Below, one piece after another: positions 155-26,300 of a DNA stretch of 64,000 nt (positions within the stretch are counted from its first letter, which is position 1; each line of letters opens with the position of its first letter). Origin of the DNA: an uncultured Planctomycetales bacterium (GTDB taxonomy: Bacteria > Omnitrophota > Gorgyraeia > Zapsychrales > CAYRXT01). The position numbers and the translations under genes are program-made. The notes beneath the pieces were generated by a model. It was not told where the DNA came from, searched no databases, and saw only the letters and a list, made by a program, of their open reading frames with translations. The stretch lies in the NCBI GenBank assembly GCA_964428315.1, contig CAYRXT010000001.1, positions 18,944-82,943 of the forward strand, read 5' to 3'.

Positions 155-2020
155 ATGGGGGTTATTTATAAATTAACGGACGATGTGCTTCGATTTATAA
201 TCGACCGGAAGAAGGCTGACCCGAACCTCAGCTGCCGCAAACTCGCGGACATTGTCAGGCAAGCCTTTAATATCCATGTTTCAAAGTCTTCGGTGAATGC
301 CGTGCTCAAGGAGACCGGGCTCAGCAGTCCGGTCGGCCGGCACGCCGGAGAGAAAGGGCCCGGAAAGGAGCGCTCCCCCGCGGGACGGAAGGACAGGTCT
401 GGAGAGGGCCGGCGAGCGATCAAGAAAAAGCCCGCGGCAGACCCGGGGTCTGATGAGCTTCCGATGTCTCGCGGATATGCCGTTAGCTCTCGACCGGAAG
501 GGCGAACAGTCGGTGGAGGTAAAGGATCAAGGTTTGATGTCCAGAGTGGACAAAAAAGCATTGTAAATAATGTCCAAAATAGCAAAGAGGCCCTTGCTCT
601 TTCCCCCGAAGGGGCGCCGCCGCGGGATATGAACAGCGAAGAGGCGATCACGCTGAAAACCACTGAGGATCTCGGCGTGTTGCGCGACGCCATGGGCATG
701 TTTTTTTTGAAGGCGGCCCAGTGGGAGCTCATGGGAGACAACGTCCTTTTCCGTTTGTTTAAAGAAAGCCTTCCGGATGTCCGGGACGCGACGGCCCGGG
801 CCGCGGCGGATTTGCTGGTTTACGGCCCGGCGTTGGACATAGACCGCCCTGACAAGATCGTCCTGGCGCGGGAAGCTTTTTCCTGGGTCGAACGCGGTCC
901 GGAGTCCTGGCCGCAGGACAACGACATCAGGGCGTTGCTTTCGCGGATAGAGGATAACGAAGCCATCTGTTTTCATTTTACGAATGAAATCCCCGCGGCC
1001 TTTGCTGAGGCGTCCTGCCTGTGTCTGCATTTGGCCGACGGGTCGCGCCTGTGTTCAGACGGACAAAACGGGGGTATCGCCCGGGAGGCCAAAGAGATTC
1101 AGGGTCCGTCTTCTCCGCTCAATCAGCTGCTGGGGCTCTGTGTCCGACAGGTCATGGTCAATGACGTCCCGTTTTTTGTGCGCAGGCTCCGGGCCGGAAA
1201 ATATTTCGCGCCGTCATTTTTTAATCTGGTCTGGTCCTTTTGCGGATCGCCGCATAAACAGATACAGAGGATCAGCGTCCTGGATCCCGGCGGGCGCGAA
1301 GAGGTGTCTTTCTCGTCGATACCGCATAAGACACGCCGTTTTATCGGCTGTCTCCACGAGGACCAGCCTGTTTTTCAGGATTTTGTCTCGAAAAGACGGC
1401 GCGGCCCGAAGGCGCTGAATTTCCCCTGGACGTCGGAGAAAATCTTTTATGAGGAGATCCCCGCGGAGGTCAACATCCGCCATGAAGAACGAAGCGCGTC
1501 CCTGCGCGCCGTCCTTCTCCTGAAAGAAGACCGCCCGCGGATGGTCCTGCTGACAAACGCCTCCCGCGAGGCCTTGAGCGCCGAATCCCTTGTGCGCGCT
1601 CTTTTAAACCGTTGGCCTGATATGTTGTCGCAGGAAGAGGAAGTTGGCGGAAAAGGCACAGGGCTCCCCTTGACCGACAGCCTGAAATCTCCGGAGGGCA
1701 AAGAGGTGGACATCCAGGCGTTGCCCCCCGATCCCTGGGAATACGGCAGGCTGGTTTTAGCCGGCCTGAACGCCTGTTGTCAGAAATACTATTTTTCACG
1801 GACGGTCAGCCAGTGGCCGTTTTCCGCGCTCAACGAAAAAGTTTACAGGCTTCCCGGCTTCTTAAAGATTAACGGAGAGGTCCTCGAGGTTTCTTTAAAG
1901 GCCGGGAATCTTGAGATGGAAGAAGTCCGGGAGATTAAGCGGGCTGCCCGGGCTGTGACCAATCGCTGCGTTGTCAGTCCCCGGAGCAAAAGGCTGATTC
2001 TGGATGTTGTGGACGAATAA
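155..2020 (+). CDS. hypothetical protein with N-terminal helix-turn-helix-like segment (possible DNA-binding regulator; transposase-derived HTH not excluded)
   Basis: 621-aa ORF from the track. N-terminus 'LTDDVLRFIIDRKKADPNLSCRKLADIVRQAFNIHVSKSSVNAVLKETG' has an HTH-like pattern. A low-complexity Pro/Gly/Arg linker follows, then a ~400-aa C-terminal region with no motif I recognise. No Walker A, so it is not the missing TadA/TadZ. Confidence 0.55.
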   Translation: MGVIYKLTDDVLRFIIDRKKADPNLSCRKLADIVRQAFNIHVSKSSVNAVLKETGLSSPVGRHAGEKGPGKERSPAGRKDRSGEGRRAIKKKPAADPGSDELPMSRGYAVSSRPEGRTVGGGKGSRFDVQSGQKSIVNNVQNSKEALALSPEGAPPRDMNSEEAITLKTTEDLGVLRDAMGMFFLKAAQWELMGDNVLFRLFKESLPDVRDATARAAADLLVYGPALDIDRPDKIVLAREAFSWVERGPESWPQDNDIRALLSRIEDNEAICFHFTNEIPAAFAEASCLCLHLADGSRLCSDGQNGGIAREAKEIQGPSSPLNQLLGLCVRQVMVNDVPFFVRRLRAGKYFAPSFFNLVWSFCGSPHKQIQRISVLDPGGREEVSFSSIPHKTRRFIGCLHEDQPVFQDFVSKRRRGPKALNFPWTSEKIFYEEIPAEVNIRHEERSASLRAVLLLKEDRPRMVLLTNASREALSAESLVRALLNRWPDMLSQEEEVGGKGTGLPLTDSLKSPEGKEVDIQALPPDPWEYGRLVLAGLNACCQKYYFSRTVSQWPFSALNEKVYRLPGFLKINGEVLEVSLKAGNLEMEEVREIKRAARAVTNRCVVSPRSKRLILDVVDE

Positions 2021-5112: not shown

Positions 5113-5140
5113 CCCTCCGGGGCGCCAGCTGGGAGAGGAT

Positions 5141-5473: not shown

Positions 5474-5492
5474 GGATCGGGGGAACCTGGCA

Positions 5493-7133
5493 ATGGAAGG
5501 CGCAAGAGGAGAGAAGAAAAAGGCTCCGGCCATTAACCGCATGCCGACCCGCGCCCAGACCGTGTCGGAGCTGGCGGTCTTCGGGGCCATCCTGATCTTT
5601 GTCATAGGGGCGATGATCCGCTACGCGGTCAACTTTAATTACAACCAGAACCAGCAGCTTGCCGCCATGCGCATGGCTCTAAAGCTTTCTTATCAGGCGG
5701 GAGTCGCAGACAACACCGCCCGGAAATCCGCCACGGTGATTTACATCGAAGACCGGCAGGATGTTTCGCCCGGAAAATACGCTTCGCAGAACCGCACGCC
5801 CTACATCGTGACGGGATCGGGCGCCTTCACCAACGACCTTATGCTCCCGACAGACTGGATGAAGGACAGCGTGCCCATGATGGATATTTTTGTGAACGGC
5901 GAACCTTTTACGTTTTCGACGGCCAGGTACAAGGTCGTGACGGTTGCGCGCGTGACAAATACCGAAAACAATTACGGCTATGATTGTTCTCCGGGCCGGA
6001 GGGACGACGAAGTGCATCCGTGCACGCCGGCGTTTCCGGACGAATGCCCTGATGGCATTGATTACAGGAGGGTCTGGTCCACGGAGAACAACTGGACAGT
6101 TCAGCCGGCGCCCTGTTTTGCCTCCGGGGGCTCCGGCTGCGGCGTGTTCCTTGCGCGGCTCGCCAATCTGCCTTTGTCCCGCGACAAACGGTTTTGTCTG
6201 GTGAGGGAAAGGTGTCCGGTCCATTTTCCGTGGGACATGCCCCTCCAGGACCGTTTCAACCTTGATCTGAGCAGTACGTTTTACACAGGCGGGCGGGGTC
6301 AGAAATGCACGGGTAATACGGGTAATCCTGATTATTGCGACGTCATAGGGTCGGATCTGGCCATGACGGCCTTTCCCTGGCAGTGGGACTATGTGAAGGG
6401 CACGACCTCGGTCGTCAATTTCGGCGAAGGGGGCGTGACCGGCCTGGACGTCGATCTCGACGGCAAGGAAGAGCAGGTGATGGGGTATACCGATCACCTT
6501 GACCGCACTGTTTGGGCAGACGGCAGCTCTTCTTCTCCGGACGAAGAGGAATGTCCTTTGTCGAGCACAGACGCGATCATAGTCAAATTTTACGTCATGG
6601 ATTCCCAGGACGGAGACTGGGACGGAACATTCGGTGATTGGGACAAAAGGTTCCATCCGGATAGGGTGGCACCGGGACTGGCCTCGGAGCAGGCCATGGT
6701 TACCCAGACCAACGTTGAAGGCCGGCGGGGGACATTCCTTCGGATTACCGAGGCAAACAGGCAGTCCCGTTCCGAGCAAAAGAGCGACCGTCTGGACATC
6801 ATAGAGAGGAAGATCCAGCTGAGCAACGATACCGGCCGGCTGTGCCGGAAGAATTACGGTCCCGACGTTGTTTGTTGCTGTGATCCCGCGCAGGATCCTT
6901 TTTGTCCGCCTGACCCGGGGGCAAGCGTGACCATCCCGGTCGGAGGGCGCAGGCGCGCCGTCTACTGGAACTGCGGACCGGAGGCGTGCCTTTCGCAGGG
7001 CGCCGGGGCCCCGATTCCGGATTTGATTTACCGGCATTGCTTCGACCAGAAGACCAAGGTTTTGCACATCCGCAGCCGGATAGGCGAGAGGCGCGGCACA
7101 CGGTGGATCACGGACACCAGCCCGCGGAATTAA
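5493..7133 (+). CDS. TadE/TadF-like pseudopilin with a large Cys-rich (~18 Cys) C-terminal domain; putative minor pilin or tip adhesin
   Basis: N-terminal class-III signal-like 'RA|QTVS|ELAVFGAILIFVIGAM'. The 546-aa size is far larger than canonical TadE/F. Cys clusters include 'VVCCCDPAQDPFCPPDPG'. GGGGGA RBS. Confidence 0.6.
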   Translation: MEGARGEKKKAPAINRMPTRAQTVSELAVFGAILIFVIGAMIRYAVNFNYNQNQQLAAMRMALKLSYQAGVADNTARKSATVIYIEDRQDVSPGKYASQNRTPYIVTGSGAFTNDLMLPTDWMKDSVPMMDIFVNGEPFTFSTARYKVVTVARVTNTENNYGYDCSPGRRDDEVHPCTPAFPDECPDGIDYRRVWSTENNWTVQPAPCFASGGSGCGVFLARLANLPLSRDKRFCLVRERCPVHFPWDMPLQDRFNLDLSSTFYTGGRGQKCTGNTGNPDYCDVIGSDLAMTAFPWQWDYVKGTTSVVNFGEGGVTGLDVDLDGKEEQVMGYTDHLDRTVWADGSSSSPDEEECPLSSTDAIIVKFYVMDSQDGDWDGTFGDWDKRFHPDRVAPGLASEQAMVTQTNVEGRRGTFLRITEANRQSRSEQKSDRLDIIERKIQLSNDTGRLCRKNYGPDVVCCCDPAQDPFCPPDPGASVTIPVGGRRRAVYWNCGPEACLSQGAGAPIPDLIYRHCFDQKTKVLHIRSRIGERRGTRWITDTSPRN

Positions 7134-7197
7134 AGCGGCCTCGCAATGACAGCAGTTTGGACAGCATTGATTTGGCAGTAATTATGAGGCAGGTCTT

Positions 7198-7503
7198 ATG
7201 AAAAGAAAAGTTTATGGTAACCACCGCGGTCATCCCAAGGGCCAGGTCCTGCTCGAGTTTGCCTTCTGTATGATCGCCCTGATGGTTCTTGTCTACGGCA
7301 CGGTCATGGCCTTCCGCTGGTGCGGCATGAGCCTGGTGGGCCGTTCGTCCGCCCACTGGTCTGTGTTAACGAGGGAAGTCAGAGACGATTTTGAAAATAA
7401 TGATCCTGTAAGGCCTGACACCCAAGTTTCGATAAGCTTTGAACGGCCGGCCAGGGACGGTTTCGACTTTGTCATGCCCAACGACGTCATCTATGGAGAA
7501 TAG
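7198..7503 (+). CDS. tadE: TadE-like pseudopilin
   Basis: 'KG|QVLL|EFAFCMIALMVLVYG' matches the TadE/TadG N-terminal motif. 101 aa. Confidence 0.6.
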   Translation: MKRKVYGNHRGHPKGQVLLEFAFCMIALMVLVYGTVMAFRWCGMSLVGRSSAHWSVLTREVRDDFENNDPVRPDTQVSISFERPARDGFDFVMPNDVIYGE

Positions 7504-7506
7504 GCC

Positions 7507-10500
7507 ATGCTGACATCAATGAACAGGTGGATGCGGGGAACAAAGAGGAAGGGCATTTTTTCCGCGATCGGCGGTAGCCGCCGGGGCCAGGTCGCGTTAC
7601 TCCTGGTGATCCTCATCGCCGTCGGCCTGATCTTTTTCGCGGTGACCCTTAATCTGGGCAAGATCGCCCAGATCCGGGTTTACACGACCATGGCCTCAAA
7701 CACGAGCGCGGCTTTCATGGGATCCCTCATGGCCAGTTACGCCGAGAGCATGTATCAAGCGCAGCTTGGCGGCGAAGAGGAATGCGGCGATGACCTGACT
7801 GTTGACAAGTGGTCCGGGTTGGCGGTGGCTATTCTGACGATTTTTGCGGCCATTATATCGGTGCTCACCTGTCAGCCGGGACCGGTTATGGCAGTCGTTT
7901 CTATCATTGGCCTGTCGGCGGCGCTGGGTTCGGCGGCCATTCAGCTTTCTGTGATCCAGCCCGGGCTGGATCAACTGCTTAATACGATGTTCGAGTCCAT
8001 CGAATCGCCGGCCGACCAGTTTGTCGAACGGGGCATCTACACAGCGTTGAGGAACAGCGTCACGGACTCCGAGGTCGTCGATGATATCTATGACATGGAT
8101 ATGGACGGGCTTTTCGCGCCGCATGACAGAGTCAGCCGTTTCGCTTATTATTACACGGCCTTTCGCGTCCAGGATTTCACGCCTCCCACGGCCAACCCGC
8201 AGGCCGTGGCGAATTTTCTGACGGATCTCGGCGAGTTCGTCTATGAGCCGTATTATTACCTTAAAGGTCTTTCTGGTTCGAATGCCTGGCGGGTTCCCCA
8301 TCTGAATGTTCACGGAGACGACTGGGCGCTTTTCTCTCCAGTAAGATGTGAAAATGACATCGCCCACGTGTGTTGCGCTCCTCCTCCTGTCCCACCGTGT
8401 CTGGGCCTGGACTGCAGCGATCCGCAGGCGCGTGATGAACATCCGGAATGCTGTCGCGCTGCTTATAATTTTTGCCGGACGAATACCCCCCTCGATCATT
8501 CCGAATGCTCCAGGGATAACGATGATTTTGAGGATATCGGCCGGGCGTACGCGGAGTGCAACCCCTTGTGCGCCTTCTCTTGGGCGGGGTGCTCATCCCT
8601 GGGGCATTACTGCGGGACAGACTGCTATGATGGGCGTTGCCGCATCTATGACCCGTTTTTCCACAACGACGAATTAGATCCCGGGGATACCCTTTATTTT
8701 AAACCTTTTCTCGGTCGGGACGACGGAAACGCGAAATGCATAGACGATCCAGTTTCCGGCATTCCGGAAGATGACCCCATCGGCGGCGACCGTACTGTTA
8801 ATACGTCCGGCGGGCGGATGGTCACGGACGCGAAAGGTCTGTTCCGTCTTTTGTGGGTTTTCGGCAAAATGGTCGATCTGCGTGAAGTGAACGAAATTCA
8901 TGTCTCCGCGTTTGGCCGCCGGGAACTGTGCGTGTGGTGCAATACGGACTATGAGGCATGTGAAGTCCCTTCCGTCAGGAATCCGGATTTGCCGGATTGT
9001 CCTCTCAGGGCCGTCGATCTTCAAACCTGCTGTGTGCATGAGGGAAACCGCTTCGACGCCGTTCCGAATGCGACGGACCTGGTTATGGATGAAGACGCCT
9101 GTCCGCACCAGCCCGGCATACCTTATGAAGAAAATGCCCACCATGAAGTGATACAGGTCAACAGCCTTTGGAAGCCCGGCGACGACATGTATTGTTCTTT
9201 CGATGCCGTTTCGCCGTATGATGAGCTCTGTCCCTGGCTGCATTGTCTGCCCGGGTGCGACGCCTGTGATCCGGACGGCGGGCCGTGCGCGGCCGACGGG
9301 GCGTGCTATACAGAGCATACGGACAACCCTGCAGGGACTACACTTACCGACCCCTACAATTGGACCCGGGATCCTTTGGACCAGATGTCTATGGAGATCA
9401 ATGAATTTGTGGCCTGGGCGGATTCGATTCTTTCCAAGGATGTTTTGGTCCTGGGCCGGACCGTTGCTTCCTGGTTCCCGCAAGCCTTTTACTGGATTCA
9501 CCCCGAACGGGGCCGTCTGGCTCACTGGCTGGCCTATCTCAGGGGCGTCAAGGAAAAGCTCGAGGAGTGGAGGGACGGCACCTACATCGATCAGGACGGG
9601 ACCGACTGCCTCACCGTGTGTTACGAGAGCGGGGCCAATTGTTCCGATAACACGCCGCCCGAAGGGGTGACGGGAACCATGTCCGACATTGTCGCCTGCC
9701 TTGAAGAATACCGGGACACGTTTGATCCGCAGAACAACACATACGCCAAGATCGATTACCGCGTCAAGTTTCTCCGGGAATACGTAACCGACGATGACAG
9801 CGTTTTGAACAGATTGATCAATGACACGGACGGGACGCTGACGACCGCTATCAGGAAAATCGAGGATTTTCTTACGCATGCTTCCGGTGATTACGGCGGC
9901 GTTCAGCAGATGATAGAAGAATGGGAACGGTTTATGAAAGAAACAGATTACGCCTTGCCCGGACGGGCCATGTACGGCTGGAAGGATACGGAAGAAGACG
10001 GCGGGATGTGGCATATCGTGTACGCTGAAACGAAACTGCCGACGCGCTGTGACTGCCGCTGCGGGAGGCAGGGCCATAACTTGGGCGGATATAACGATGA
10101 TTGTCCAGAATCGGATTTCCCCTATGTGCACCACTATAAGCGTTACGGGGGCTCGAAACGTTATTATTCGCTGGTGGACAGTCTGGACCGGCACGTTGCG
10201 TGCGATGAAGACTCTGTGGGCGATAGGGAATACGATGATGACACGCATTGTTTTCGGGGAGGGACGGTCAAGTCACGCGTTATCCGCTATGACCAGGACC
10301 ACGACTTTGTCGAATTTGCCAATAGATTTCGCATCTGGCGTTTCGTGTACAGCCGTCCGGGCACAACGCCTATCAGCCCGGAAAGGCTTGATTCGGTCTG
10401 CGCCCCCCAGAGCAGCGCTGTTTCCAGACCCGGAGAGGAGGCTTTTCTTTTGAATCGGAGAGGGGATAATCCTCGGTGCTGGGATCTTGCCTCACAGCTA

Positions 10501-10629
10501 TTACGTCGGGGTGTTAAAGATGAGACGTGCGTTGAGTACTTCTTCCGGGATGTCGGCCATTTGGTTGATCTTGCGGAGAGGCGCAGGGGTATTTATACCG
10601 CGTTTACGCCCTGTGAAGGAGAGTGGTAA
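7507..10629 (+). CDS. TadG-like pilus-associated protein; 1040 aa, extremely Cys-rich (~46 Cys); putative pilus tip/adhesin
   Basis: N-terminal 'RRGQVALLLVILIAVGLIFFAVTL' is a pseudopilin-like hydrophobic segment. Many CxxC, CC and CxC clusters. Coding is tightly packed with the flanking genes. Confidence 0.55.
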   Translation: MLTSMNRWMRGTKRKGIFSAIGGSRRGQVALLLVILIAVGLIFFAVTLNLGKIAQIRVYTTMASNTSAAFMGSLMASYAESMYQAQLGGEEECGDDLTVDKWSGLAVAILTIFAAIISVLTCQPGPVMAVVSIIGLSAALGSAAIQLSVIQPGLDQLLNTMFESIESPADQFVERGIYTALRNSVTDSEVVDDIYDMDMDGLFAPHDRVSRFAYYYTAFRVQDFTPPTANPQAVANFLTDLGEFVYEPYYYLKGLSGSNAWRVPHLNVHGDDWALFSPVRCENDIAHVCCAPPPVPPCLGLDCSDPQARDEHPECCRAAYNFCRTNTPLDHSECSRDNDDFEDIGRAYAECNPLCAFSWAGCSSLGHYCGTDCYDGRCRIYDPFFHNDELDPGDTLYFKPFLGRDDGNAKCIDDPVSGIPEDDPIGGDRTVNTSGGRMVTDAKGLFRLLWVFGKMVDLREVNEIHVSAFGRRELCVWCNTDYEACEVPSVRNPDLPDCPLRAVDLQTCCVHEGNRFDAVPNATDLVMDEDACPHQPGIPYEENAHHEVIQVNSLWKPGDDMYCSFDAVSPYDELCPWLHCLPGCDACDPDGGPCAADGACYTEHTDNPAGTTLTDPYNWTRDPLDQMSMEINEFVAWADSILSKDVLVLGRTVASWFPQAFYWIHPERGRLAHWLAYLRGVKEKLEEWRDGTYIDQDGTDCLTVCYESGANCSDNTPPEGVTGTMSDIVACLEEYRDTFDPQNNTYAKIDYRVKFLREYVTDDDSVLNRLINDTDGTLTTAIRKIEDFLTHASGDYGGVQQMIEEWERFMKETDYALPGRAMYGWKDTEEDGGMWHIVYAETKLPTRCDCRCGRQGHNLGGYNDDCPESDFPYVHHYKRYGGSKRYYSLVDSLDRHVACDEDSVGDREYDDDTHCFRGGTVKSRVIRYDQDHDFVEFANRFRIWRFVYSRPGTTPISPERLDSVCAPQSSAVSRPGEEAFLLNRRGDNPRCWDLASQLLRRGVKDETCVEYFFRDVGHLVDLAERRRGIYTAFTPCEGEW

Positions 10630-11068: not shown

Positions 11069-11929
11069 ATGTGGGTCGTTATAATGGCCTTGACATTCGG
11101 ATCGGTGAGCGCCTTATGCCACTACCTGCTTCTGCCTTCGGTGGTGGAGAAGGCCCGACAGGTCAACCGTAAACGGACGAACGAGCTCTCGGACCGCCTG
11201 GACCGCATGTTTATGCGCGAGCAGACCAGCAAGGTCCTTTTTATGTACACTTTCGGCCCCTTTGTCCTGGCCTTTTTGCTCTTTATGCTGTGTCCGCCCG
11301 AGTTCAAGGCCGCCGGTGTGGTCCTGGGTTTTATGGCTGGCCTGGTCATCCCGATGATCGCGGTAAGATCCATGGAGCAGAGGCGGAGGGACAAGTTCGA
11401 CAGCCAGATGGTCGACACGCTGATGATCATGTCCAGCGCCCTCAAAGGGGGGTTGAGCCTCGTCCAGGCCATGGAAGTTGTGGTAGAGGAAATGTCGGAG
11501 CCGACCAATCAGGAGTTCGGGATCCTTCTTGGGGAAAACAAGATGGGAATCCCCCTGGATGAGGCCTTTGCCCACCTCTACAGCCGCATGCCTTCGGTTT
11601 CCCTACAGCAGGTGATCACGACGATTTTGCTGGCACGGGAGACAGGAGGCAACCTCCCGGTTATTTTTAACCGTATCGTGAACACGATCAGGGAGAACAG
11701 GAAGCTGCGTGAAAATCTTAACAATTTGACGCTTCAGGGCCGGATCCAGGGCGGGGTCATGTCGATCCTGCCGATTGTCTTTGCCTCCATCGTACTTTCC
11801 AGTAATCCCAATTATTTCGACAGCATGTTTAACACGGAAATCGGCCGGACTTTGCTGGGGGCGTGCGTCGCCATGGAGCTTATAGGCGCATTTTTAATTT
11901 GGAAGATTAGCAATTTCAAAGACTTCTGA
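11069..11929 (+). CDS. tadB: Tad pilus platform protein TadB-like (T2SS F-domain)
   Basis: 286 aa with N-terminal TM helices and T2SSF-type core 'SSALKGGLSLVQAMEVVVEEMSEPTNQEFGILLGENKMGIPLDEAFAHLYSRMP...LLARETGGNL'. Confidence 0.85.
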   Translation: MWVVIMALTFGSVSALCHYLLLPSVVEKARQVNRKRTNELSDRLDRMFMREQTSKVLFMYTFGPFVLAFLLFMLCPPEFKAAGVVLGFMAGLVIPMIAVRSMEQRRRDKFDSQMVDTLMIMSSALKGGLSLVQAMEVVVEEMSEPTNQEFGILLGENKMGIPLDEAFAHLYSRMPSVSLQQVITTILLARETGGNLPVIFNRIVNTIRENRKLRENLNNLTLQGRIQGGVMSILPIVFASIVLSSNPNYFDSMFNTEIGRTLLGACVAMELIGAFLIWKISNFKDF

Positions 11930-11951: not shown

Positions 11952-12887
11952 GTGGAACCGGTCGGTTTGGGGAGGATACGGTTCATGCTCGGTTTTTCAT
12001 TTCTCCTGGCTTTTATTTCGGCTTTTTTCGTGATTTACGGCCTCTTCGGGACCCACACAGAGGAGAGGCCGCATCTTAGCCGCTTTGAAGAGCCCCAGCA
12101 GAGGAGAGCGCCCAGGAAGAGGCACAGGACGATTGTCGGAAAAATGCTGTCCCGCCTGGCCCTTTTTAACAGGCCCCTGTGTCATAATGTTGTTGGCCGT
12201 CGTCTCGCCAGGGACCTGGGGGCGGCCCAGCTGGACATAACCCCGGAAGAATTTATGCTCTTGAAGCAGGTCCTGATCGTCTTTTTGTTCATGGCCTTTT
12301 TCCCCCGGGCGACGCAGGAGACCCTTGTCTTCTTCATCCTTGTCATTATCGGGGGAGGCTATTACATCCCCGAATTCTGGCTGAAGACGAAGGTCAGGAA
12401 GGTGAAAAACGCCATTATCAAACAGCTCCCCGACACCGTAGACCTCCTGAGCCTTTGCGTCAACGCCGGTCTGGACTTCATGCTGGCCCTCAAGTGGGTT
12501 ATCGACAAATCCCCGCCGTCCATCCTGCTCAACGAACTGAGTCTGATCCTTCAGGAGATCAACGTGGGCAAACCCCGTCGGGAGGCCTTGCGGGATATGG
12601 CCAAAAAGTACGAACTGCCCGACCTGTCGACCTTTTCCCGGACGCTCATCCAGGCCGACCGCATGGGGACCTCCATAGGCGACGCCCTGAACATCCTTTC
12701 GGAGGATATGCGTATGGTCCGCTACCGCCGCGGGGAGAAGATCGCCCTGAAGGCGCCCCTGAAGCTCCTTGCCCCCCTTCTCCTTTTTATCTTCCCTGTT
12801 GTGGCCATCCTGGTCGGCGCGCCGATCATCCTGGATTTCATGTCGCGCAGCACAATGGAATCCATGAGCATCCTGACAGGGGGATGA
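11952..12887 (+). CDS. tadC: Tad pilus platform protein TadC-like (T2SS F-domain)
   Basis: 311 aa; 'LCVNAGLDFMLALKWVIDKSP...ILQEINVGKPRREALRDMAKKYELPDLSTFSRTLIQADRMGTSIGDALNILSEDMR'. Confidence 0.85.
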   Translation: MEPVGLGRIRFMLGFSFLLAFISAFFVIYGLFGTHTEERPHLSRFEEPQQRRAPRKRHRTIVGKMLSRLALFNRPLCHNVVGRRLARDLGAAQLDITPEEFMLLKQVLIVFLFMAFFPRATQETLVFFILVIIGGGYYIPEFWLKTKVRKVKNAIIKQLPDTVDLLSLCVNAGLDFMLALKWVIDKSPPSILLNELSLILQEINVGKPRREALRDMAKKYELPDLSTFSRTLIQADRMGTSIGDALNILSEDMRMVRYRRGEKIALKAPLKLLAPLLLFIFPVVAILVGAPIILDFMSRSTMESMSILTGG

Positions 12888-14347: not shown

Positions 14348-17300
14348 ATGAACGTTAAAGAAGACATATTCGGGCCCAGGCCCGAGCCCCCCGAGGAAGG
14401 GCAAAAGCCGTTCAAAAGCCGGTTCAAGGGCTGGATAAGGACGGTGGCCTTGGTCCTGGTGCTTGTCTTTGTCCCGGACCAGATCAGCTGGGCTCTGAAC
14501 TATAACCCGGCGGTCCTCTGGAAGGACCGGGCGGCCCATTATGTCAGTCCGGACGCCACCCGGGATGAAAAGATCTCGGCCGAGATCGCGGCCAGCGTGG
14601 AAAACCTCCTGCGCCAGGTCGCCTATAAAGAAGAGCCGCGGATCAGCCTGACCCTGACCGATTTGTCCATCACCGACCCTGAGCTGGCCAAGCGAGACCT
14701 CCACATCCAGTCCAAAGAGTTCTTCACCAACGCCCGGGTGCGCAGGTTCTATTCCTGGATACGGGCGAAAACAACCTATCCGCTCAACTGCGCCGTCTAC
14801 GCCCTGCGCGACCTTCTGACGCGGCACGATATCGAAGCGCCCCTCATGGACCTTTCCGTGGTCACCCTGATGGTCGACATCATGAACAACGTCATCCACC
14901 CCAACGACACCCGGCTGAAGACCTCGCTGTTCGCCCTCGCCAAGGTGGCCGAGGCCTACGGCCTGCGCTTCAGGCCCGCGCGCCTGCGGCCGGTCGAGAT
15001 CATCCATCTCGAAACGCCCTTCATCGCGAGCCTGGAAGACGAGCATTTCGTCATGGTCACGGCCTTTGACGAGGACAACGTCTTCTACACGGACATCGGC
15101 CGGGCCATGATGCTCAGCAAGGATGAATTTTCCGGAAAGCTCACCGGCTATGTCCTCGCCGATGAAGGTAAAATTAAGGAGAAGAAGATCGTCTCCGACG
15201 CCATGTCAGCCTTTGTCTGGGGTTCCAAGTGGCACAGCAACGTCGACCAGCTTCCCGGCATGACGAACACTCAATTCGCGATTACCGCTCTGGTCAAGAT
15301 TCTTAGCGCCCTTGCTGCCGGAGGCGCCCTAGGCGAGACCGCGGGCAAGCTCGCGGGCAGTGCGGAGTGGTTCGTCTTCAGCGAGGGCATTTCGGCTTTG
15401 GCGAATGGCATTACTACGGCCAAGATCCTCAGCGGGGAATGGAACGCGGAGGACGCCCGCGCCTTCGCTTCGGTGCTCGGCACGGCGTTGGTCGTGGGCC
15501 GCCTGGCCGCCGGTTCGTACCACGATTCCGTCATCAAGGACGGGTTCCAGTGGAAGACCTTTTTGGGCAACTTCGCCAAGGGAGGCGTCATGGGTCTCGG
15601 CAAGGGCGAACTGACCAAATGGATTACCGGCTTCTTGGAACGGCATATCAAGACCAAGGATCCGATCCTCAGAGAAGCTATAATAAGCACCGTCTCCTCC
15701 ATCGCTGCGTCTTTTGCCATGGCCGGCATGATCAAGGCGGCGGGCCTGAGCAAACAGTTTGGATTTGTACACCAGGAAGGAGAAAATACGACCGAAGGCG
15801 CCGGCAAGAGCCTGGTCAAGGTCGAGGCCATGGGCCTGGGCGAGATCCTGGAAACCGTCCTTATCAACGACGCCCTTCCCCTCCTGCTCACCGAGGCCGT
15901 GGGCACGGCCTTCCGTCTGGCGCATCGCGCCCAGGGCGGGGACCCCTTCAGCCGCGCCTCGCGCTCCATGGGCGCGCTGGGACGCTCGCTGGCCGCGGCG
16001 GCCTATAACGCCTACCTCCGTCCGGCCAACAAGATCGTGTCCAAGGACGGACAGGAAAAGGGGTCGATCAAGAGAGAAGGGGAGGATACGGTCGTGGTCA
16101 GGACCGAACGGGAACTGACCAAAGAGGAAGCGCAAAAGATTGAAAACGGCGAAGAGTTCCGCAAGACGCTTTTTGACAAAAAGGGCCGGGCCTACGCCTT
16201 CCTCGTGATCAAAGACGGCAAGGCCATGGTCAGCGAGGCGGTGTCCTGGGAAAAAGGTGAAAAAGAAGACGGCAGCACGCCCTCCGGCCTCCGTGACACG
16301 CGCTTCCTGACGGTTGAGGCGAAGCGGGATGAGGATAAAAAGAAAGAAAAGGAGCCTTACTCCAAAGGTGATGTGACCGTCGAAAAAAGGATAGACAGGG
16401 ATACCGGCGGCGTCCGGTATGTCCTAGTCAAAGATTTTACGTTCAAGGAGAACCCCGACGGTTCCCTGCCCTCCGGGTTCTGGCAGGAGTACACCCAGTT
16501 CGGCGCCTGGCTGAACGACGATTACCGCGGCGGCCTGAAAAACGTCATCGCGTCCCTCGGCACGGGGCTGACCCATTATCTCGTGTCCAAACAGCTTGAC
16601 GACATCGAGGCCAGGAACGTCGGCAAGGGCATGAACAAGGAAGAGTTCACGGCGGTCGCGTTTTTGACGACGATGTTCTCGGCCGGTTTCGCCGGGGCCC
16701 TGATCGACGAGATGGGCCTGGGGAGGGCCTCCGGCCTGCGGAAGATCGAGACCGTCAAGGTCGACGCGGACCGCGACGGGGAGGAAGAAAGCCGGCAGGT
16801 CTACGAGAAGGACGACGGAAACGGCAAAAAAGTCCGGGGCGTCCTCCTTACCACAAGGCGGGGCGTAAACGAAAAGACAGAATTTATTCCCGTCACGGAA
16901 GACGCCGAAACAGGCGAGGTCGCGCTGGCCGAATCCGGACGGGAAGAGGTTGACGACCTCAAAGACGCCGACAAGGACGGCACGCCCGACGGCTATTCCG
17001 AGGCGACGGTCCTCCTCACCGGCAGATCGGCCAGGGATTTCTTTGACAAATTTCTCCAGCTCTCCGCCCTCCAGCTGCAGGGCATGCTCCTCAACCGTTA
17101 CGTCGGCGTGGGTCTGAACCCCTTTAAAGACATGACCGCCTTCGGAAGCCCCGAGATGCGTTCCATGCAGAGCCCGTTCTTTTTCCGGTACATGAACAAC
17201 GTGACCAAGGTCCAGGAGGCCTCGGACGCGGCGGACTTCATCGTCCAGAAGGCCGGGCTGACCGACGACCTCCTCCTGCAGATGAAGGCCCGCAAGGAGC

Positions 17301-20300
17301 AGATGCGCGAGAAAAACGCGCTTCTCCCCGAAGATGAGAGGAAGTCGGAAAAGGAACTGCGCAAAGAACTGGCCTACGCCATGTACAACCAGTACAGCGT
17401 GGGAGGGGCCATGCTGAAATTTACCCTCAGCGCCCTGGACGCCGGCACGATCGACAACACGGTCGCCGGCCTGGAATACCTCTCTTCCCTTAAATATGTT
17501 CCGTCCGCCTTTCATGAATACTCCGGCTGGCAGCAGAGAGGCGTCGTGGACATCGCCCTGGACGAGGCCTGCGGCAGCGGCGACTGCGTGGCCTTCAGGG
17601 ACGGCAAAGGGCGGCTGTTTTCGGCGGACAGTGACAGTGACGAGGCGCGCAGGGCCAGGGAACAGGGCCGGATAGTGTCCGAGGATTTCAATAAAGACAG
17701 GCTGACCTTCGCCTGGTCCAAGAACGCCATCACCGGCGACACGACCATGCACATGATGGAAGGGGCCCGCTTCTTCGTGGGCAGCCGCAACTGGGAGGTG
17801 GGTTACGCCCGTCTCAAAAAAGACGAGCCCACCCAGCTGATACTCGACTTCGGCCAGCTGACACCTGCCGAACAGCTCCGGCTGGGGATGCTGGAGAGCA
17901 ACCTGGGCTGGCATTCGCAGAACATGGACGGCTCCTTTAACACGGCCAAACTGCTGACCGCGAACGGCCGGGTCATGGGATCCGAAGGCCCTGAACTGAA
18001 ACGAGGCTACACCTCCAAACTGGAAGAAAAAGACGGCGAAATGAAGATGGTCTACCGCAACGCCGTCGGCGAAGAGGTTGAAGCCGGCGAGGCCGTTGCC
18101 GACGATTATTCCTCCGCAGAACGGATGGAGGTCTTCACCAAGGGCAAGTCCGGTGTCCTCGGCGGTACCGTCAGCCGGGACATCCTCCTTGGCCAGGACA
18201 AGGCGAGCGTGTACGTTATGTACGAAAACCGGCGCAAGTCGTTCCTGGGGCTTGGCAACACGGCCCTGGGCAGCGCGCTGGGCATGACGCGCACCGACCG
18301 CCGCGTGGACGTGGAGTTCAACCGCCACGGCGATTACAACTTTGATGTGGAGGCCGATGTTTATGACATAAGCATGCCCGGGGGCGGCTACGCGGACAGG
18401 CGTGAAGAACGCCATACCGGCAACGTCCGGCTGGGCGTCACCATGTTCATCGGCGGTTCTCTGCGGGATAAAGAGGAGGGCGACTTCATCAACTCCTTCC
18501 GCACCATCGGCCTGCGCACCGACGGCGTGGACAGGGCCGATATCGTGGCCCAGCGCTTCAGCCACGCCGATGACGCGGACATGTCGAAATACTTCGTTGC
18601 CAGCCTGGATTATTTCGCCAACAAGAATGTGGATTTCATAAAGGCGCGCCTGCTGGAGACCTTGGCCGAAAGCCGCGGGATTTCGGCGGAAGGCCTGAAA
18701 GATGTCGTCCGCACGCCTGACCTGAAGGCCGGTTATACGCGCGCGGTCGATGGGACCGGCGACGAGCAGAAGCTGGTGTATTACAGCCTGGCGACCGGCG
18801 CCGAAGTGGAACGGGAAGAGGCCCTCAGGCCTGACGGCGGCAGTGTCGTGGCCGTGTACGACGACGGAAACGGCGGCGAAAGGCGGGTGGACATCACCCG
18901 GAACGACGATAAGACCGGCCGGCCGGAGGCCGGCGAGGCCATCGCGGACCGTGAGCACAGCCTCCTGGAAGAGAGGGACGTCCAGATCGCCCTTTCCCGT
19001 GAGGAGAACGGGGCGGTCAACCACGACCGGTTTCATATATTGTCCAATCTGAGCCGCCTTTCCGGGAACGTGGCGTCCAAAGAGCTGGTCCAGGCGGATT
19101 TTCATGTCGACGCCTTCGCCCGGGAACGCGGCAGGGCCCTGACGCCTCCGCTCAACGATAATGGTAAAGTCAGGGACGATGTGGAGATCCTTGGGGGCAA
19201 TACCTCTGCCCCCGTTTATGTGGACAAAAGAACGGGCGATTTCCTGACCGCCGAAGAGGCCGGCGTCACCGAAGACAGGGGCCTGTTCTTCCAGGAAATA
19301 AGGACCTACAGGAATCTGCCGTATATGGCCGGCATGGGCGGCGATGAGGCCGAACGGGAAAGGGCCGGCGCCCTTTCCGACGCGATGTATATCGAGACGG
19401 TTTACAGCATGCCCACCAGGGGCAGAAATACGACCCTGATCAAGCAGGACGAGCTGTCTTTCGGCATGGGGGACAGGGAGCAGGCTAAGAAATTCCTCGA
19501 CTTATACAAGAAGACGGAGGCCGCGAAGGGCGCTGACATCGGCGAATTCGGACACCTGGCCGGCGCCAAGGGCCGCATCGCCTTCCAGACCACGATATTC
19601 GACAAGGAGTTCACCGGCTCGAAATACGGCGAGATCAACGACAAGGTCCTCAGCGAGCTCAACGACATCAAGGGCGCGATCTTCGACTCCTACGCCGTCG
19701 CCGGAGGGGAAACCCTCGATAAGGGCCGCATGCTCTTCGGCGACCTGAAGGAAATGAAAGAGGTCACCCACCATGTCAGGGCGAATTTCGGTTTTGACAT
19801 GCACGAGATCAGGGCGCAGGACAGAGAACAGCTGGACAAGGCCGTGGCGCAGTTCGACCAGGGCGAGATCGATGAGATCACCATCAGCGGGTACACCGAC
19901 GAGGCCGGGTCCGTCGCCTACAACCTGGAGCTCGGCCAGAAACGGGCCGAGGCCATGAAGGCGTATCTCATCGAGAGGGGCGTGTCCGGAGAGAAGATCA
20001 AGACCGTGTCTCACGGTGAGAAGAAGGTCACGGTGACCGGCAAGGCGTACTCCAAAGAGGCGGGCCTGGTCGACCGCAAGTCCGAGTTCGAGTTCAAGAC
20101 GCTTGAAGAAGGGGAGACCTCGGGCCGTTCGTACGTCAATATCGACAACATCCGCGCGGACGGCCGGATCGAGGGGAACGTCGGCGTCGACGGCTTCCTG
20201 GTCCACGGCGGTGAGGGCATCTCCAACGACACCCTGATCCTGGCGCCCACCGGCGGCATGGAACTGCAGAGCCGCGCGGCCTTTGTCACCACCTTTAACG

Positions 20301-23300
20301 ACGGGATCCGCCAGGGCATGGGACGCAAGGAGGCCCTGGAGCTGGCCTTCGCGGCCGTCAGGCCTCCGGAAGCAGAGTTGAAAACCCTTGCCCCGCCACT
20401 GAAAGACGGTTACATGCGCGTCCTTCCCGGTGACGGGAACGGACCGGCGGGTTACTGGGACATGAACGCGGAGAAGTGGGTCTCCAGGGAAGAGGCCCTG
20501 GATATCCCCGCGGCCGGGGCGGAGTCCGAGGCCGGATCCGTGGACGGCGTGGCCAAGGCCCGCGACCTTGACGCCGGACTGGTGGCCTACGCCACGGAAC
20601 TGCGCAAGGTCGGCGCGGACAAGCCCGGACAGTATGTCCGCGTCCAGGACAACATGCCGGTCCTCCCCAAGAAGGTCATCTTCGACAAGAAAGGCGCCTG
20701 GAACCCCTGGGACACCAAGCGCGTCGATGACGAGGGGACGATGGTCGTGGCCAGCCGGTTCCGCGACGGGACGGTCACGATGAGCGAAGGCGGAGCCGTC
20801 TATTCCAAGGGCCTCAAGGCGACGATCTTCACGAACAAGAACGCCCGGGAAGACCAGGGCCCCATGTACGAGATCCTCGACGGGGTGACCGAACAGCTGG
20901 CCGGCTATGAAGTGGAAGGCAAACAGAGCTTCGCCGTGGTCGCCGGCGCGGGCACCGAGATGGAATACGACGGCCGCAGATGGCTCCTTAAGGACATGGA
21001 CGGCAACATCGTGGGCGAGAGAAAGCTGGCCTACGGCGACGCCGTGGGCACCGGCCGCATATCAAAGAAGGCCGAGGAAAGAGAGAATGTTGACCAGGAC
21101 GAAAAGAGGACCTACCGCTACCGCCTGGGCCACGGCATGGAGGGCGCCACGGCCAACAAGGACGGGATCATCTCCATGGTCTCGAAGTCGGGCGGGGATG
21201 ACAGCGTCATCGTCACGGTCACCAAGACCAAGGGCGGCGCCGGGGAATCCCCCGAGTTCATTTCCTCTTACAAGACCACTTACGACAACATCCATAATAA
21301 GGAAGGCGGGAAGTCCATATTCCAGCACCACACCGTCCGCGAAGAGGGCGAACAGCTCGAATACATCCTCGCCGGAAGCGGCCTGGAATCCACCCGCACC
21401 TACGAAGGCGCCCGGTTCCGCGTCGACCAGGAAGACAAGTCCAGCCTCCACCGGCAGGGGGATAATTTGTATGAGATAACGGGCGACGCAAATAGAGACT
21501 CGGCCGGTTATATCGAACTGGGCAGGCACGGCCTCATCAAGGGGGCCTATGCCAGGATGTGGAACCACGACGGCCTGCACGAAATGAAACAGTTCGGCCG
21601 CTTCGCCGACGCCGAATTCACTATTGTCGCGAAGGGAGACATGTTCATCGAGGACGGGGGCGTTGACGCCTCGCGCTCCGGCGAGTTCTTTTATGTCACG
21701 AAGGACACCAGGAAAGAGCTTCTGCCGGGGATATCCGTCGAGGCCATGTCCCACCTGGGGCTGGGCGACCGCAACCAGGTTGATTCCGGGATCATGGTGA
21801 AGGACTGGAGAGGAAATCTGGTCTTCAAAAAGCTGGCCGAGGCCAGGCTGGACGGGTTTGCCAAAAGAGATAAAGATCTGGTCCTGATCTCTTCGAACGG
21901 AAAACTGTCCGTTGACCGCGGGAAGTTCCTTTATCTTCAGCAGGACATCAAGGAGAACAGCAAGACCGGACCGTCGGGCGGCGGGGAAAACAAGAAGAAA
22001 ACATTTGAAGAGACGGATCCTCGCACGGCCGACCAGAGGCTGGTCTCCCAGGCCAACAAGCAGAGCGGGGAATCCCGCGCCGGCATCCAGGGACTTTACC
22101 GGGGGGACAAGGAGATCATCGACGCTTCCGACGAGGCCATGGCCGAGGCCCAGGCCATCGGCGGCGCAGATGGCGTCGCGCTCCCCGACTTCAAGCTGGA
22201 ATTCATCCCCCACGCCACCGGCGTGACGCCTAACCTCCACACGGCCGGGTCCATGCTGTTTGTCTCCAAAGAGACGACCAAAGACAAGTCCGTCAAGGTC
22301 GGGCACAAGATCACCAAGGTGGCCAAGAACGGCCGCAGGCGCACCGGCCACGACGAAAAGCTGGATGTTTCTAGTGCGGGCGGCGAAGGCAGTGTCATCA
22401 ACTGGGACAAGAACGGAAACATGGTTTTTCTCGGCGGGGACAAACGCTGGAAGGGCGAGAACTATCAATGGACGCACGACGACCACGCCGTCCTGCAGAA
22501 CAAGACCGGCGAATGGGAGGGCGGGCATCTCAGCGCCGCCGCCTTTTCCAGGGAAGCCCGTCTGACCACCGACGGGAAGTGGGCCCTTTTCAAAGGTTTG
22601 GAAGGCAGTTCCTGGGCCAAGGGGTTCTTTGATGTGCAAGGCCAGAAGGTCAAGGTCATCGAGGGGATACGCAACACTTATGTCGGGGTCAAGGAAAACA
22701 AGACCCTCAAGGGCGGGTTCACAGTGCCGGTATATGTGGAAGGCAGCAGCCGGCTGAGCGGCTGGGCCCTGAACGCCGTGGCCGGGACCTCGGGCGTGAC
22801 GCCCTTTGCCGAGGCGCAGGCCGATCCTTCTTCTGCGCAGGAGACGCCGCGTTTCGCGACGTTTGAGCACTTCGGAGAGGTCAAGACCGAAAAAGGTTTG
22901 ACCTTTGAAGGCCAGACATTCAACTTCGATGAAGTCGGCATCAAGATCGAAGAGGCCGGACAGAGCCTCGCGATGAAGATTCAGGGAGTGGACAAGCACG
23001 GCAACCTTCAGCTGGAAACCACGGACGATTTTGTCAACACCCGGGCCGAACACGAGATCGCCGGAGAGATGTACGTTTACGCCCATGATATCGCCGGCTT
23101 CCGGGACCTGCTGGTTGCCAGGGGAGGTCCCCGCATGACCATTCACCTGAGCGGAAAGAAGGACGCCAAGGCCCAGAAAAAAATATTGAAGACAGAATTG
23201 GATGCGCTCAGGACCTACCTCCACGAGCGTTCCCTGCAGGGTTCATCCGATGAGAATATAGCCGACCGTTACAATCCGGAAAAGAGGAACGTCCTGGAAG

Positions 23301-26300
23301 GGATCACATTTGACAATGTCAGAGAAAAAGTCGCGGTCGGGCTGGGCGGCGCGCATCGGTCCACCACCGGATCCTTCGGGACAGTGATGGGACGGGAATT
23401 CAGGGTCCACGGACAGAAGGCCGAGGTCCGTGACGAGAATGGCGAGTACGTAACGAGGTTTGTCGTGGAAAACAACGATTTTCAGACACGGTCCAAGCGC
23501 AAGATCGAAGGGGCCAAGGAAGATGACGAGGTCGTTGTCACGGCGATGTCCACCCGCGGCGGCATCATCGAAAAGGACGACAAGGTCACGGTCTACCACA
23601 GAGACGGCACCTCCACCGAAGGCGCCCTGAGGGCCGTGCCCGTTACAGTGACGGAGAAAGGCAAGGAGGTGGAGAAGCAGAAGCTTACCTTCTTCAAGAA
23701 CGGCGCCACCCTTTCACACAAGGAAAAACTTAAATCACCCGGCGGAGAGGAGTTTACCCTGGTCAGCCACCTCAAGGTCCACGACGGCCAGTTCGTCTCG
23801 GATTCCGAGAAGAAACCCCAGCTTCTGGACAAGAACAACGAGGACTTGATCGCCCTGGCCGACGGCGGCAAAAACCAGAGGGTTGTTATCGACTCGGTCC
23901 ATTCGGGAGATGTTTCCGACGCGGCGGGCAAGACGAGGTCACTGATAACCATAAGGTTTGAAAACGAGGTTGAGGTGGGTTACGATTCGAATCTCACTTT
24001 CAAAAGGAAAGCGATTAAATCGAAAAATAACATCATCGACCTCGTCACCAAGACCCTGTTCAGCCGTGAAGACGCCCTCAGCGAGTTCGGGAAAGGCGCG
24101 GAAGGCGGCAAGACCCTGACCTTTGTCCACAAGAATTTGGGCTACGACCATATCGCGAAATTGTCCCAGGACGAGGGGGAGATCGAGGAGAAGCAGTATG
24201 TCCGGTATTATGACTCGCGGTTGAAGAAAGAGGTGACCGCCGAGTTGATCGTCGGTTCGGAGGTTGAGGGCCGCGATTTTGCCTCGGGCGCCGACAGGAA
24301 GCTTGTCTTTATAGACACCCGCAATGTTAAAGGGATAAAGGAAGATACCCAGGTCTTCGACATGAACACCGGCGACCGGGTGGCAAGCTGGGTGCGCATA
24401 GAGGCCGGCGGCAAGGTTATCGGCGCCACGAAGGACCGTTTCTTCCACCGCCACAAGAAACAGGACGGCTGGCTGGGTCAGAACACGGGACTCCTGAAGG
24501 ACATGAATGACAGCGCCTTCCACCGTACCGGAAAGATGACCTGGGTGAAGAGGAAGCTGATGGACGCCGGCATGAGTTACCATGCGGCGACGGCCCTGGA
24601 TCTTTCCGACCCTTCCGCCTTGACGGTCCTGACCGCCCCGCTGATGGTGATGGGTGTCGCAGCCAAAGCCGGTCAGGCAGCGCGGATGGTCAGAGCCTAT
24701 AAAGCAGCGAAAGATGTTGCGGGGGTGGCCAGAGTTGTGCAGGCCTGGAAAACAGCTAAAAACATTGGAAGGGGAATGGAGGCCCTTTCTCTCCTCAACA
24801 CGGCGAGGAGCGGGGAAAATGTCATGCTGACCATGACCGGGATCCAGAAGGCGGCCGAGGGGGCCAGTCTTGCCGTCAAAGGCAATTCGGCCCTGGCCAT
24901 GTATAAGGCCTCGAGGGCCGTGTCGGCCACAACAAAACTTATGCGGCTCGGCAATACCATGATTAACCAGGGCGCGTTCTTGGGTGCGCTTCAGGCCGGT
25001 GTGTACACGTACCAGGCCGGCGGTGACGCGACCTGGAGCGGGGCGCTCGCAGCGGGGGCCGAGGGCTTTAAGTCCGGAAGAAACTTTGCCCTGATGCTCG
25101 GCAGCGCGTCGGTCCTGGCCAAGGGCACGCGGATATTCCAGGGCATCCAAGCAGGCCGCCGTCTGGAGAAAGCCGCAGAAACCCTGGCTGAAATAGGCAA
25201 AAATTCGAGCGGCCTGAGGTCTTTGACCGCCAAGGTGTCTTCCAAAATACTTGGAGGAGGACTCAAGGTCGCCCGCTCTTCTTATACGGCTGGCGCCCTG
25301 CAGGGCGCGGCGGTCAACGTCGTCCGGGGATACGTGACGGCCCTGCTCGATGATGAAAACGACAACCTCGATGATGAAAACTACAACTGGGGCGATTTCG
25401 GCCGCGACGCTCTCGTCGGCGTTGCCCTCGGAGCGGCCTTCAACGGTACTGTTCTTAACCGCTTTGCGAAAGGTAAAAAGCTTGGGCTTACGATTAAGGA
25501 CAGAACCTACGGCTTCAAGGCGATGGAGGGCGGCAGGTCCTTCGCTGCCGTGAACACGATGAAGCTCGCCGGTTACACGGGGCTCGGCGTCATCGGCGGA
25601 CAGGTGGATTCCTGGCACCGCGGTAAAGGATGGAACTCCCTCGGCGAGGTGGCCATGGACGCCGGGTTCAGCTTCCTTGGCGCTTACGCGACGGTCGCGG
25701 CACCGAAGTGGTCCAAGAGGGTGCTGTATGGTGAAGACGCCAGCGCGTCGATGTTCCTGCGCAAAGGAGAGTTCGCGGAATATTTATTGAACCGCCAAAA
25801 CATCGTAGGAAAAATTTCCAAAACAATCCACAAAAGTACTCAAGGCGTGTTCGGCGCGGAAGGCCTTCTGGCCACATCTCAAAACCCTCTCCTGAGGGGT
25901 CTGCGGGCATACCGTCAGTCTAAGGTCGGGGCCGTCCTCAACACCGGCTTCAAGGGTTTCGGCGCCGGATATGGTCTTTCTTATTTTGATGACGATATCA
26001 AAGGCGGTGCTTTCAGCATGGAAAGGATGAACTACGGCCTGGCCGGCATGACCGCCCTTGGCCTCATGAAGGTCGGCCGTATGGCTTCGAAATGGATTAA
26101 TGAAAAAGCGGTCCAGTCGGCGGTGCAGGAGATGGGGCTGACCGGGCGACAGATCGGTCTTGCGAATATCATAGACAACCCCGCTCTTATAACCCGCATG
26201 TCCATGGCCGGCGCCGTGGATTTCGCCGCCATCGGCCCGGCGTGGGGCATGATGGACATGGCCGCGGTAGGCCTGATCAACAAGGTGACGGGCAGTGACC

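Follow-up and report, generated by a model that had tools for sequence, protein, structure and literature searches.

What forms the tip of a Tad-type pilus? In the Kil Tad pilus of Myxococcus xanthus, the tips are made of KilL, KilM, and KilN, homologues of TadE, TadF, and TadG that comprise one short and two extended pilins (PMC12075869). Their large distal domain has no Protein Data Bank (PDB) homologue, and numerous intramolecular disulfides are predicted in them (PMC12075869). Bdellovibrio encodes a TadZA fusion, and its tip protein TadG is required for prey invasion. Passages of Seymour et al. (2023, PMC10066038) place the TadB and TadC proteins of Candidatus Omnitrophota in one group with those of Bdellovibrionales, and passages of West-Roberts et al. 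(bioRxiv 10.1101/2023.11.21.568195) describe a conserved locus, resembling a type II secretion system (T2SS), upstream of giant genes. Here, we analyze a locus in a stretch of 64,000 nucleotides (nt) from a member of the Omnitrophota deposited as an uncultured Planctomycetales bacterium (GenBank assembly GCA_964428315.1, contig CAYRXT010000001.1, positions 18,944 to 82,943 of the forward strand; hereafter, the window). Its two most conspicuous genes encode Cys-rich, pilin-like proteins of 546 and 1040 amino acids (aa). Our reading, held with moderate confidence, is that the 546-, 101-, and 1040-aa genes of this locus, probably together with an 88-aa gene, encode the minor pilins of a Tad-type machine in Omnitrophota, resembling TadE/F/G or KilL/M/N and supplying its tip or priming subunits (Table 1).

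How does this gene set compare with that of Kil? As in Myxococcus, adjacent genes of a predatory-type Tad system encode one short and two extended pilin-like proteins, and the largest of them has a big distal domain without a PDB homologue; disulfides are predicted in the Kil proteins and are deduced here from Cys parity. An earlier note on the window, made from the sequence alone, had stated that no TadE, TadF, or TadG is Cys-rich, a view that the Kil tips with their numerous predicted disulfides (PMC12075869) have made outdated. The differences, as far as a comparison with KilLMN by description allows, are of several kinds. The Omnitrophota proteins are much larger (~720 to 1700 aa in the family of the 1040-aa protein) and contain 2.5 to 6.3% Cys. 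They have an extra hairpin, a hypervariable Cys-rich insert, and no Pfam matches, and their locus adds seven further pilin-like genes and a giant open reading frame (ORF).

The two ORFs have the coordinates and Cys counts given in the earlier note, with 18 Cys (3.3%) in the 546-aa protein and 46 Cys (4.4%) in the 1040-aa protein. All three of the Cys-cluster peptides quoted there were located: in the 546-aa protein, VVCCCDPAQDPFCPP starts at residue 459, and in the 1040-aa protein, ECCRAAYNFC and CDCRCGRQGHN lie at residues 314 and 848. Compared with a background of 21 Cys in 2125 aa (0.99%), pooled from 12 other proteins of the locus, both are enriched in Cys (binomial P = 1.3e-5 and 1.5e-16 for the 546- and the 1040-aa protein, respectively), and the five mid-size pilin paralogues upstream of the 546-aa gene contain none. 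The concern, voiced with the original description, that the Cys-rich regions might be out-of-frame artefacts is ruled out by conserved homologue families and syntenic loci, which identify both ORFs as real genes. Two antisense ORFs overlap them (5679 to 7067, 462 aa, and 8674 to 10248, 524 aa, both on the − strand); because homology and synteny support the + strand throughout, these are shadow ORFs. The true start of the 546-aa ORF may be Met17 (nt 5541), since its leader is longer than those of the aligned homologues.

How widespread are these proteins, and how tightly are they linked? The 546-aa protein has 58 homologues with 26 to 56% identity, and those that carry a name are proteins from Candidatus Omnitrophota metagenome-assembled genomes (MAGs). 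A three-sequence profile of the 1040-aa protein, searched against 1.84 billion representatives, recovered 640 clusters (50% identity), of which 276 reach E ≤ 1e-30. A scan that covered a single genome for each Genome Taxonomy Database (GTDB) species yielded 41 loci, syntenic and on the + strand, from Omnitrophota MAGs or from third-party annotation (TPA) bins labeled "uncultured Planctomycetales," plus one labeled "Saccharibacteria." Judged by these searches, both families appear to be confined to Candidatus Omnitrophota. A tblastn search of plasmids with the 1040-aa protein gave no match, and a further word-index homology search with profile A1 added nothing new.

Order within the module is constant. 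When local hidden Markov models (HMMs) were run on the fetched loci, a gene of the 1040-aa family followed the gene of the 546-aa family in 37 of the 37 loci whose downstream DNA exceeds ~1.1 kb; the nine loci without such a match have at most 1.1 kb left on that side. The gap between the two genes, ~230 to 520 bp and mostly 230 to 420 bp, holds a pilin gene of ~100 aa. Three features of the context had escaped the earlier note: the assignment to Omnitrophota, the ~100-aa pilin that is coupled to the two genes, and the giant ORF directly downstream of the locus.

Is the surrounding locus of Tad type? The window contains a Flp-like gene and two genes with T2SSF domains, and the upstream part of syntenic relatives adds RcpC, a secretin with a TonB_C domain, a TadZ(CpaE)-TadA fusion, Flp_Fap, and DUF192. 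In three relatives (L003, 33 to 3826; L004, 425 to 4280; L005, 133 to 5132), TonB_C sits on the secretin, and TadZ (ParA/CbiA) forms a fusion with the TadA ATPase, the TadZA arrangement also reported for Bdellovibrio. Both Cys-rich genes stand between the Flp and other pilin-like genes on one side and TadB and TadC on the other, which is the Tad-type setting that had been claimed for them. The 53-aa Flp-type pilin is likely the major subunit, and at the place of the 88-aa pilin-like gene relatives have a syntenic gene of 113 to 172 aa. In all, the locus has eleven pilin-like genes.

The window locus is the T2SS-like locus of West-Roberts et al. (bioRxiv 10.1101/2023.11.21.568195) and the Tad complex that Seymour et al. 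(2023, PMC10066038) described for Velamenicoccia. Phylum and locus type are the same and, as far as passages of the two papers describe it, so are the parts: a secretin, an ATPase, two GspF/TadBC genes, small genes with class-III signal peptides, and a giant ORF bearing a C39 domain at its N-terminus. The retrieved passages of the two papers mention neither cysteine nor the two large Cys-rich pilin-like families; the word "pseudopilin" is absent from those of West-Roberts et al., and "TadE" and "TadG" are absent from those of Seymour et al.

Do the two large proteins begin like pilins? Each opens with a short basic leader followed by ~20 hydrophobic residues, TRA/QTVSELAVFGAILIFVIGAMI in the 546-aa protein and RRG/QVALLLVILIAVGLIFFAV in the 1040-aa protein (here and below, a slash marks the predicted cleavage site). 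Among the eleven pilin-like proteins encoded here, ten have Gln+1 after [KR][GA], within a motif of the form [KR][GA]/Q-x-x-x-E-[YFLH]; the exceptions to this form are the 88-aa protein (G/SAMSEY) and the 1040-aa protein, whose RRG/QVALLL lacks Glu+5. The pattern holds across both families. In that of the 546-aa protein, conservation of Gln+1 and Glu+5 (E26) is 90% or higher, and position −1 is occupied by Ala in 38 members and by Gly in 16. In that of the 1040-aa protein, Gly−1 is present in 122 of 125 members, Gln+1 is invariant, and position +5 is Ile, Val, Leu, or Met in 124 of 125 and never Glu. Leader, cleavage motif, and hydrophobic alpha1 helix are kept in both proteins, as the earlier note had proposed when it called their N-termini pseudopilin-like. 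Together, Gln+1 and the weak matches to PF04021 (archaeal Class_III signal) give this bacterial Tad system an archaeal, Epd-like signature.

Like the canonical TadE/F/G of Aggregatibacter, Caulobacter, and Pseudomonas, the window proteins are encoded alongside Flp and TadB/C in a tad-type locus and combine a prepilin-like leader with a hydrophobic N-terminus. Unlike the canonical proteins, they fall under all Pfam thresholds, are two to three times larger, are placed before TadB/C, carry Gln+1 as in archaeal class-III signal peptides, and have no vWA domain. The Pfam matches come close for some members. The 101-aa protein reaches 16.5 bits (E = 0.009) against TadE PF07811, below the gathering cut-off of 22.9 bits, and the 546-aa protein has no match to that family at E ≤ 1. 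PF13400, the TadE/G-like N-terminus, is matched at E ≤ 0.1 by 6 of 43 relatives of the 1040-aa protein (best E = 1.4e-5; in relative P0092, residues 19 to 60 with 19.6 bits for a cut-off of 22.3), and the window protein itself has no match to it. The family of the 1040-aa protein thus appears to border on the TadG-type N-terminal family; formal Pfam membership is not established, because the PF07811 and PF13400 results for the window proteins fall short.

Could the machine be no adhesive pilus but a T2SS-like pseudopilus? On this reading, which we consider unlikely although it is the strongest of the rivals, the Cys-rich proteins would cap a short piston in the manner of GspK/I/J, and that piston would act through the secretin to push or dock either the giant protein or hydrolases whose genes lie nearby. 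The many pilin-like genes of the locus resemble a pseudopilin set. Glu+5 is missing from the family of the 1040-aa protein, as it is from GspK, the largest tip pseudopilin and the subunit expected at the tip. There is also a strict link to a giant ORF. In the window, its frame runs for at least 16,557 codons without a stop from 14330 to the window end, where it leaves the sequence; three relatives have counterparts of 42,417, 44,129, and 85,803 aa at the same position, and in most other loci open frames run off the 3' end. To this is added the description of the conserved locus as T2SS-like in passages of West-Roberts et al. (bioRxiv 10.1101/2023.11.21.568195). The core parts, however, are Tad-type (Flp_Fap, RcpC, the TadZ-TadA fusion, and split TadB/TadC), and no Pfam family of T2SS minor pseudopilins was matched. 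Furthermore, because many transmembrane regions are reported in the giant proteins in passages of the same paper, they are unlikely to be classical T2SS substrates, which fold in the periplasm. The giant ORF itself is poor in Cys (25 in 16,556 aa, 0.15%).

Structure prediction, which the earlier note had named as a check, gave a pilin-like model for the smaller of the two proteins. AlphaFold2 modeled the 546-aa protein from 59 sequences with a predicted local distance difference test (pLDDT) score of 76.8 and a predicted template modeling (pTM) score of 0.77, as a 54-residue helix (residues 18 to 71) followed by beta strands and further beta-rich domains. The protein thus models as a pilin layout. 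Sequence-profile searches of the PDB with both proteins returned only noise, and Foldseek found no match with E < 1 for the whole 546-aa model in the PDB and none with E < 0.4 in the PDB and BFVD.

Across its family, the 546-aa protein combines conserved motifs (EDR, WQW, DVDGDLKEE, DSQxGDxD, IERxIQLSNDTGRFC, and VRSRxxDxRGRKW) with a hypervariable insert at reference residues 151 to 295, which is 76 to 325 aa long, contains 2 to 28 Cys, and coincides with the low-confidence part of the model. Two acidic loops, DVDLDGKEE at residues 319 to 327 (nt 6447 to 6473) and DSQDGDWD at residues 370 to 377 (nt 6600 to 6623), are near-invariant and resemble, at the motif level only, the DxDxDG calcium-binding loops of FG-GAP/PilY1-like proteins. 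They are a point of likeness to the PilY1/PilC-type tip adhesins, and calcium binding would be a motif-level expectation.

The 1040-aa protein is built differently. A long alpha1-like segment is followed by a loop with Cys93, which is 90% conserved, and then by a conserved hydrophobic hairpin; three hydrophobic segments fall within the first ~140 mature residues in 85 of 125 family members, and 123 of 125 lack any beyond that point. The ectodomain of ~890 aa has 20 Cys columns that are at least 80% conserved. Four lineages (L005/L030, L032, L035, and L039) have the 1040-type gene split into two ORFs, of which the second corresponds to residues ~555 to 1012 of the window protein and has a classical Sec signal peptide at its start. 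This arrangement suggests a separable distal domain that would dock on the pilin-like half, comparable to the docking of PilY1 on minor pilins; neither a sequence nor a fold match to PilY1/PilC or to GspK was found. Because the second ORF of the split variants carries a Sec signal, the C-terminal half of the family is extracytoplasmic.

The same architecture could mean that the 1040-aa protein stays outside the filament, as a periplasmic scaffold that is anchored in the inner membrane by three helices and connects the platform with the secretin or the giant protein, with the smaller proteins alone as true minor pilins. We consider this somewhat less likely than a T2SS-like piston. The three N-terminal hydrophobic segments would suit such an anchor, as would the lack of Glu+5, and the distal half of the split variants, a separate Sec-exported protein, would need non-covalent docking. 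Against a scaffold stand the essentially invariant Gly−1 and Gln+1, which are hard to explain without prepilin-type processing, and the N-terminus of the 1040-aa protein, which borders PF13400. TadG and KilN homologues are modeled and treated as tip proteins in Myxococcus and Bdellovibrio, and the conserved Cys93 loop before the hairpin fits an exposed, oxidized loop.

What do the cysteines do? The earlier note offered two candidates, a disulfide-knotted and a metal-binding domain, and the statistics of both families fit the first. After removal of the leader, 56 of 59 proteins of the 546-aa family contain an even number of Cys (p = 1.2e-13). The number is also even in 117 of 151 members of the 1040-aa family (p = 7e-12) and, for the C-terminal region of the 546-aa family, in 59 of 59. 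Cys are also gained and lost in pairs, C899 with C915 (phi 0.96) and C315 with C323 (phi 0.85) in the 1040-aa family and C208 with C216 (phi 1.0) in the 546-aa family, values that are confounded by phylogeny and consistent with pairing. CxxC motifs are scarce (none in the 546-aa protein and two in the 1040-aa protein), and Pfam and NCBIfam searches of both families returned no Fe-S, zinc, cytochrome, or other metal-binding family. Parity, paired gain and loss, the scarcity of CxxC, and the exported C-terminal half together make extracytoplasmic structural disulfides, rather than metal ligands, the most likely role of the Cys. The last and by far the least probable alternative is that they bind metals or Fe-S clusters, for example in extracellular electron transfer or redox sensing: a high Cys density with local CC and CxC clusters would fit it, as would the anaerobic habit of most Omnitrophota, in which disulfide formation is less expected, but the motif and parity evidence rules against metal binding, as do the paired gains and losses, the lack of matching families, and the extracytoplasmic location.

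How well, then, does a set of minor pilins account for the locus? Several points count against it. Neither window protein exceeds any Pfam or NCBIfam threshold, and none of the 59 members of the 546-aa family matches TadE PF07811 (E ≤ 0.1), the profile by which the earlier note had suggested checking the N-termini. An hhalign comparison of the two families aligns only the leader and the N-terminal part of alpha1 (10% probability), so they are not detectably paralogous. The AlphaFold2 model of the 1040-aa protein, built from seven sequences, is unusable (pLDDT 39.5) and does not support a pilin fold. Its hairpin could be two further transmembrane helices, and extraction into a filament would therefore be costly. 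A crude regular-expression search found no motif of an A24-type prepilin peptidase in the fetched loci, eleven pilin-like genes is far above the number in canonical Tad loci, and passages of West-Roberts et al. (bioRxiv 10.1101/2023.11.21.568195) read the locus as T2SS-like. What speaks for minor pilins is that the genes are real, that synteny is conserved, that the N-termini are of pilin type, that the 546-aa protein has a pilin-like model, that the Cys statistics are those given above, and that the C-terminal half is extracytoplasmic. Leader cleavage, incorporation at a pilus tip, and a function in adhesion or recognition would follow from this reading, and a heteromeric tip complex held together by an alpha1 bundle is suggested by analogy.

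If the proteins are minor pilins, how might they work? The class-III, prepilin-type N-terminus would insert each of them in the inner membrane, with cleavage probably after the Gly or Ala ahead of the invariant Gln, and the large ectodomain would fold in the periplasm, locked by many disulfide bonds. The alpha1 helices would then bundle on the TadB/TadC platform, joined by the extra hydrophobic hairpin of the 1040-aa protein, and prime polymerization of the 53-aa Flp pilin. Because the alpha1 bundle would prime polymerization, the tip complex would reach the distal end of the filament, where the conserved ectodomain of the 1040-aa protein and the hypervariable insert of the 546-aa protein would be exposed. 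There, the tip may contact its target, which would be the surface of prey or host cells or, possibly, the giant protein whose gene lies downstream. A bolder version, which we rate as improbable, is that the 546/101/1040-aa complex forms a disulfide-armored head for prey or host recognition that is mechanically coupled to the giant protein, for example by docking or deploying it onto the target. If true, the hypervariable insert of the 546-aa family would determine host range, and with the triple-helix N-terminus of the 1040-aa family type IV filaments would be nucleated in a new way.

Seen against the described systems, neither the type of locus nor the idea of Tad tip pilins that are large and rich in disulfides is new. 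New are two phylum-specific, unannotated families, their size (up to ~1700 aa) and Cys content (up to 6.3%, or 106 residues), their strict pairing, the hydrophobic hairpin, the hypervariable insert, the split variants, and the constant link to giant ORFs.

The remaining features of the locus are collected in Table 1. The 621-aa protein at its upstream end may be a conserved regulator or component; at its position relatives have an unannotated gene of 337 to 978 aa. Between TadC and the giant ORF, a stretch of ~1.4 kb (12888 to 14347) has no large ORF on the strand of the locus, and GC content is lower (0.49) in 12001 to 14000. The corresponding stretch in relatives contains small ORFs of 59 to 162 aa. 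A search of window positions 1 to 16000 against Rfam gave no match.

Table 1. Features of the Tad-type locus in the window and, in the last four rows, loci of relatives with a split 1040-type gene (coordinates of the respective locus)
Feature	Coordinates	Strand	Characteristics
621-aa protein	155..2020	+	Weak N-terminal helix-turn-helix (HTH)/transposase-like matches only
Flp-type pilin, 53 aa	2901..3062	+	RRG/QNIVEY; counterpart in relatives matches PF04964 Flp_Fap
Pilin-like protein, 67 aa	3121..3324	+	KKA/QSTLEY; faint Class_IIIsignal match
Five paralogous Cys-free pilin-like genes, 110 to 139 aa	3375-3752, 3826-4158, ~4323-4739, 4765-5112, 5141-5473	+	[KR][GA]/QxxxE; weak PF04021
Cys-rich minor-pilin-like protein, 546 aa	5493..7133	+	Predicted leader, RA/QTVSE (Q+1, E+5), alpha1, beta-rich domains, hypervariable Cys-rich insert at ~151-295
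Short pilin-like protein, 101 aa	7198..7503	+	PKG/QVLLEF; stop 4 nt ahead of 1040-aa start; position conserved
Cys-rich TadG-like protein, 1040 aa	7507..10629	+	Predicted leader, RRG/QVALLL, long alpha1, hydrophobic hairpin at ~100-150, ectodomain of ~890 aa
Pilin-like protein, 88 aa	10632..10898	+	YG/SAMSEY; directly 3' of 1040-aa gene
TadB-like platform protein	11069..11929	+	T2SSF PF00482, E = 9e-17
TadC-like platform protein	11952..12887	+	T2SSF PF00482, E = 2.3e-13
Giant ORF, 5' part	14348..64000	+	Stop-free frame from 14330 to window end; Peptidase_C39, OmpA, HATPase_c, GGDEF
Split 1040-type locus, L005	12042-17055		
Split 1040-type locus, L032	12383-18134		
Split 1040-type locus, L035	12225-17776		
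Split 1040-type locus, L039	6927-11530		

What does this mean for the Omnitrophota? These widespread, uncultured, and ultra-small bacteria are thought to prey on or parasitize other microbes, whose cells they must recognize and hold. The Cys-rich gene pair lies shortly upstream of a gene that ranks among the longest known from bacteria, and its two strictly co-inherited families are likely the exposed end of the Tad machine that is always encoded beside the giant genes. They are concrete candidates for determinants of host range and possible targets for structural work, for antibodies, and for searches of existing metaproteomes. The concept of an "adaptable tip" for Tad pili, which Myxococcus and Bdellovibrio already illustrate, may now extend to a third predatory lineage.

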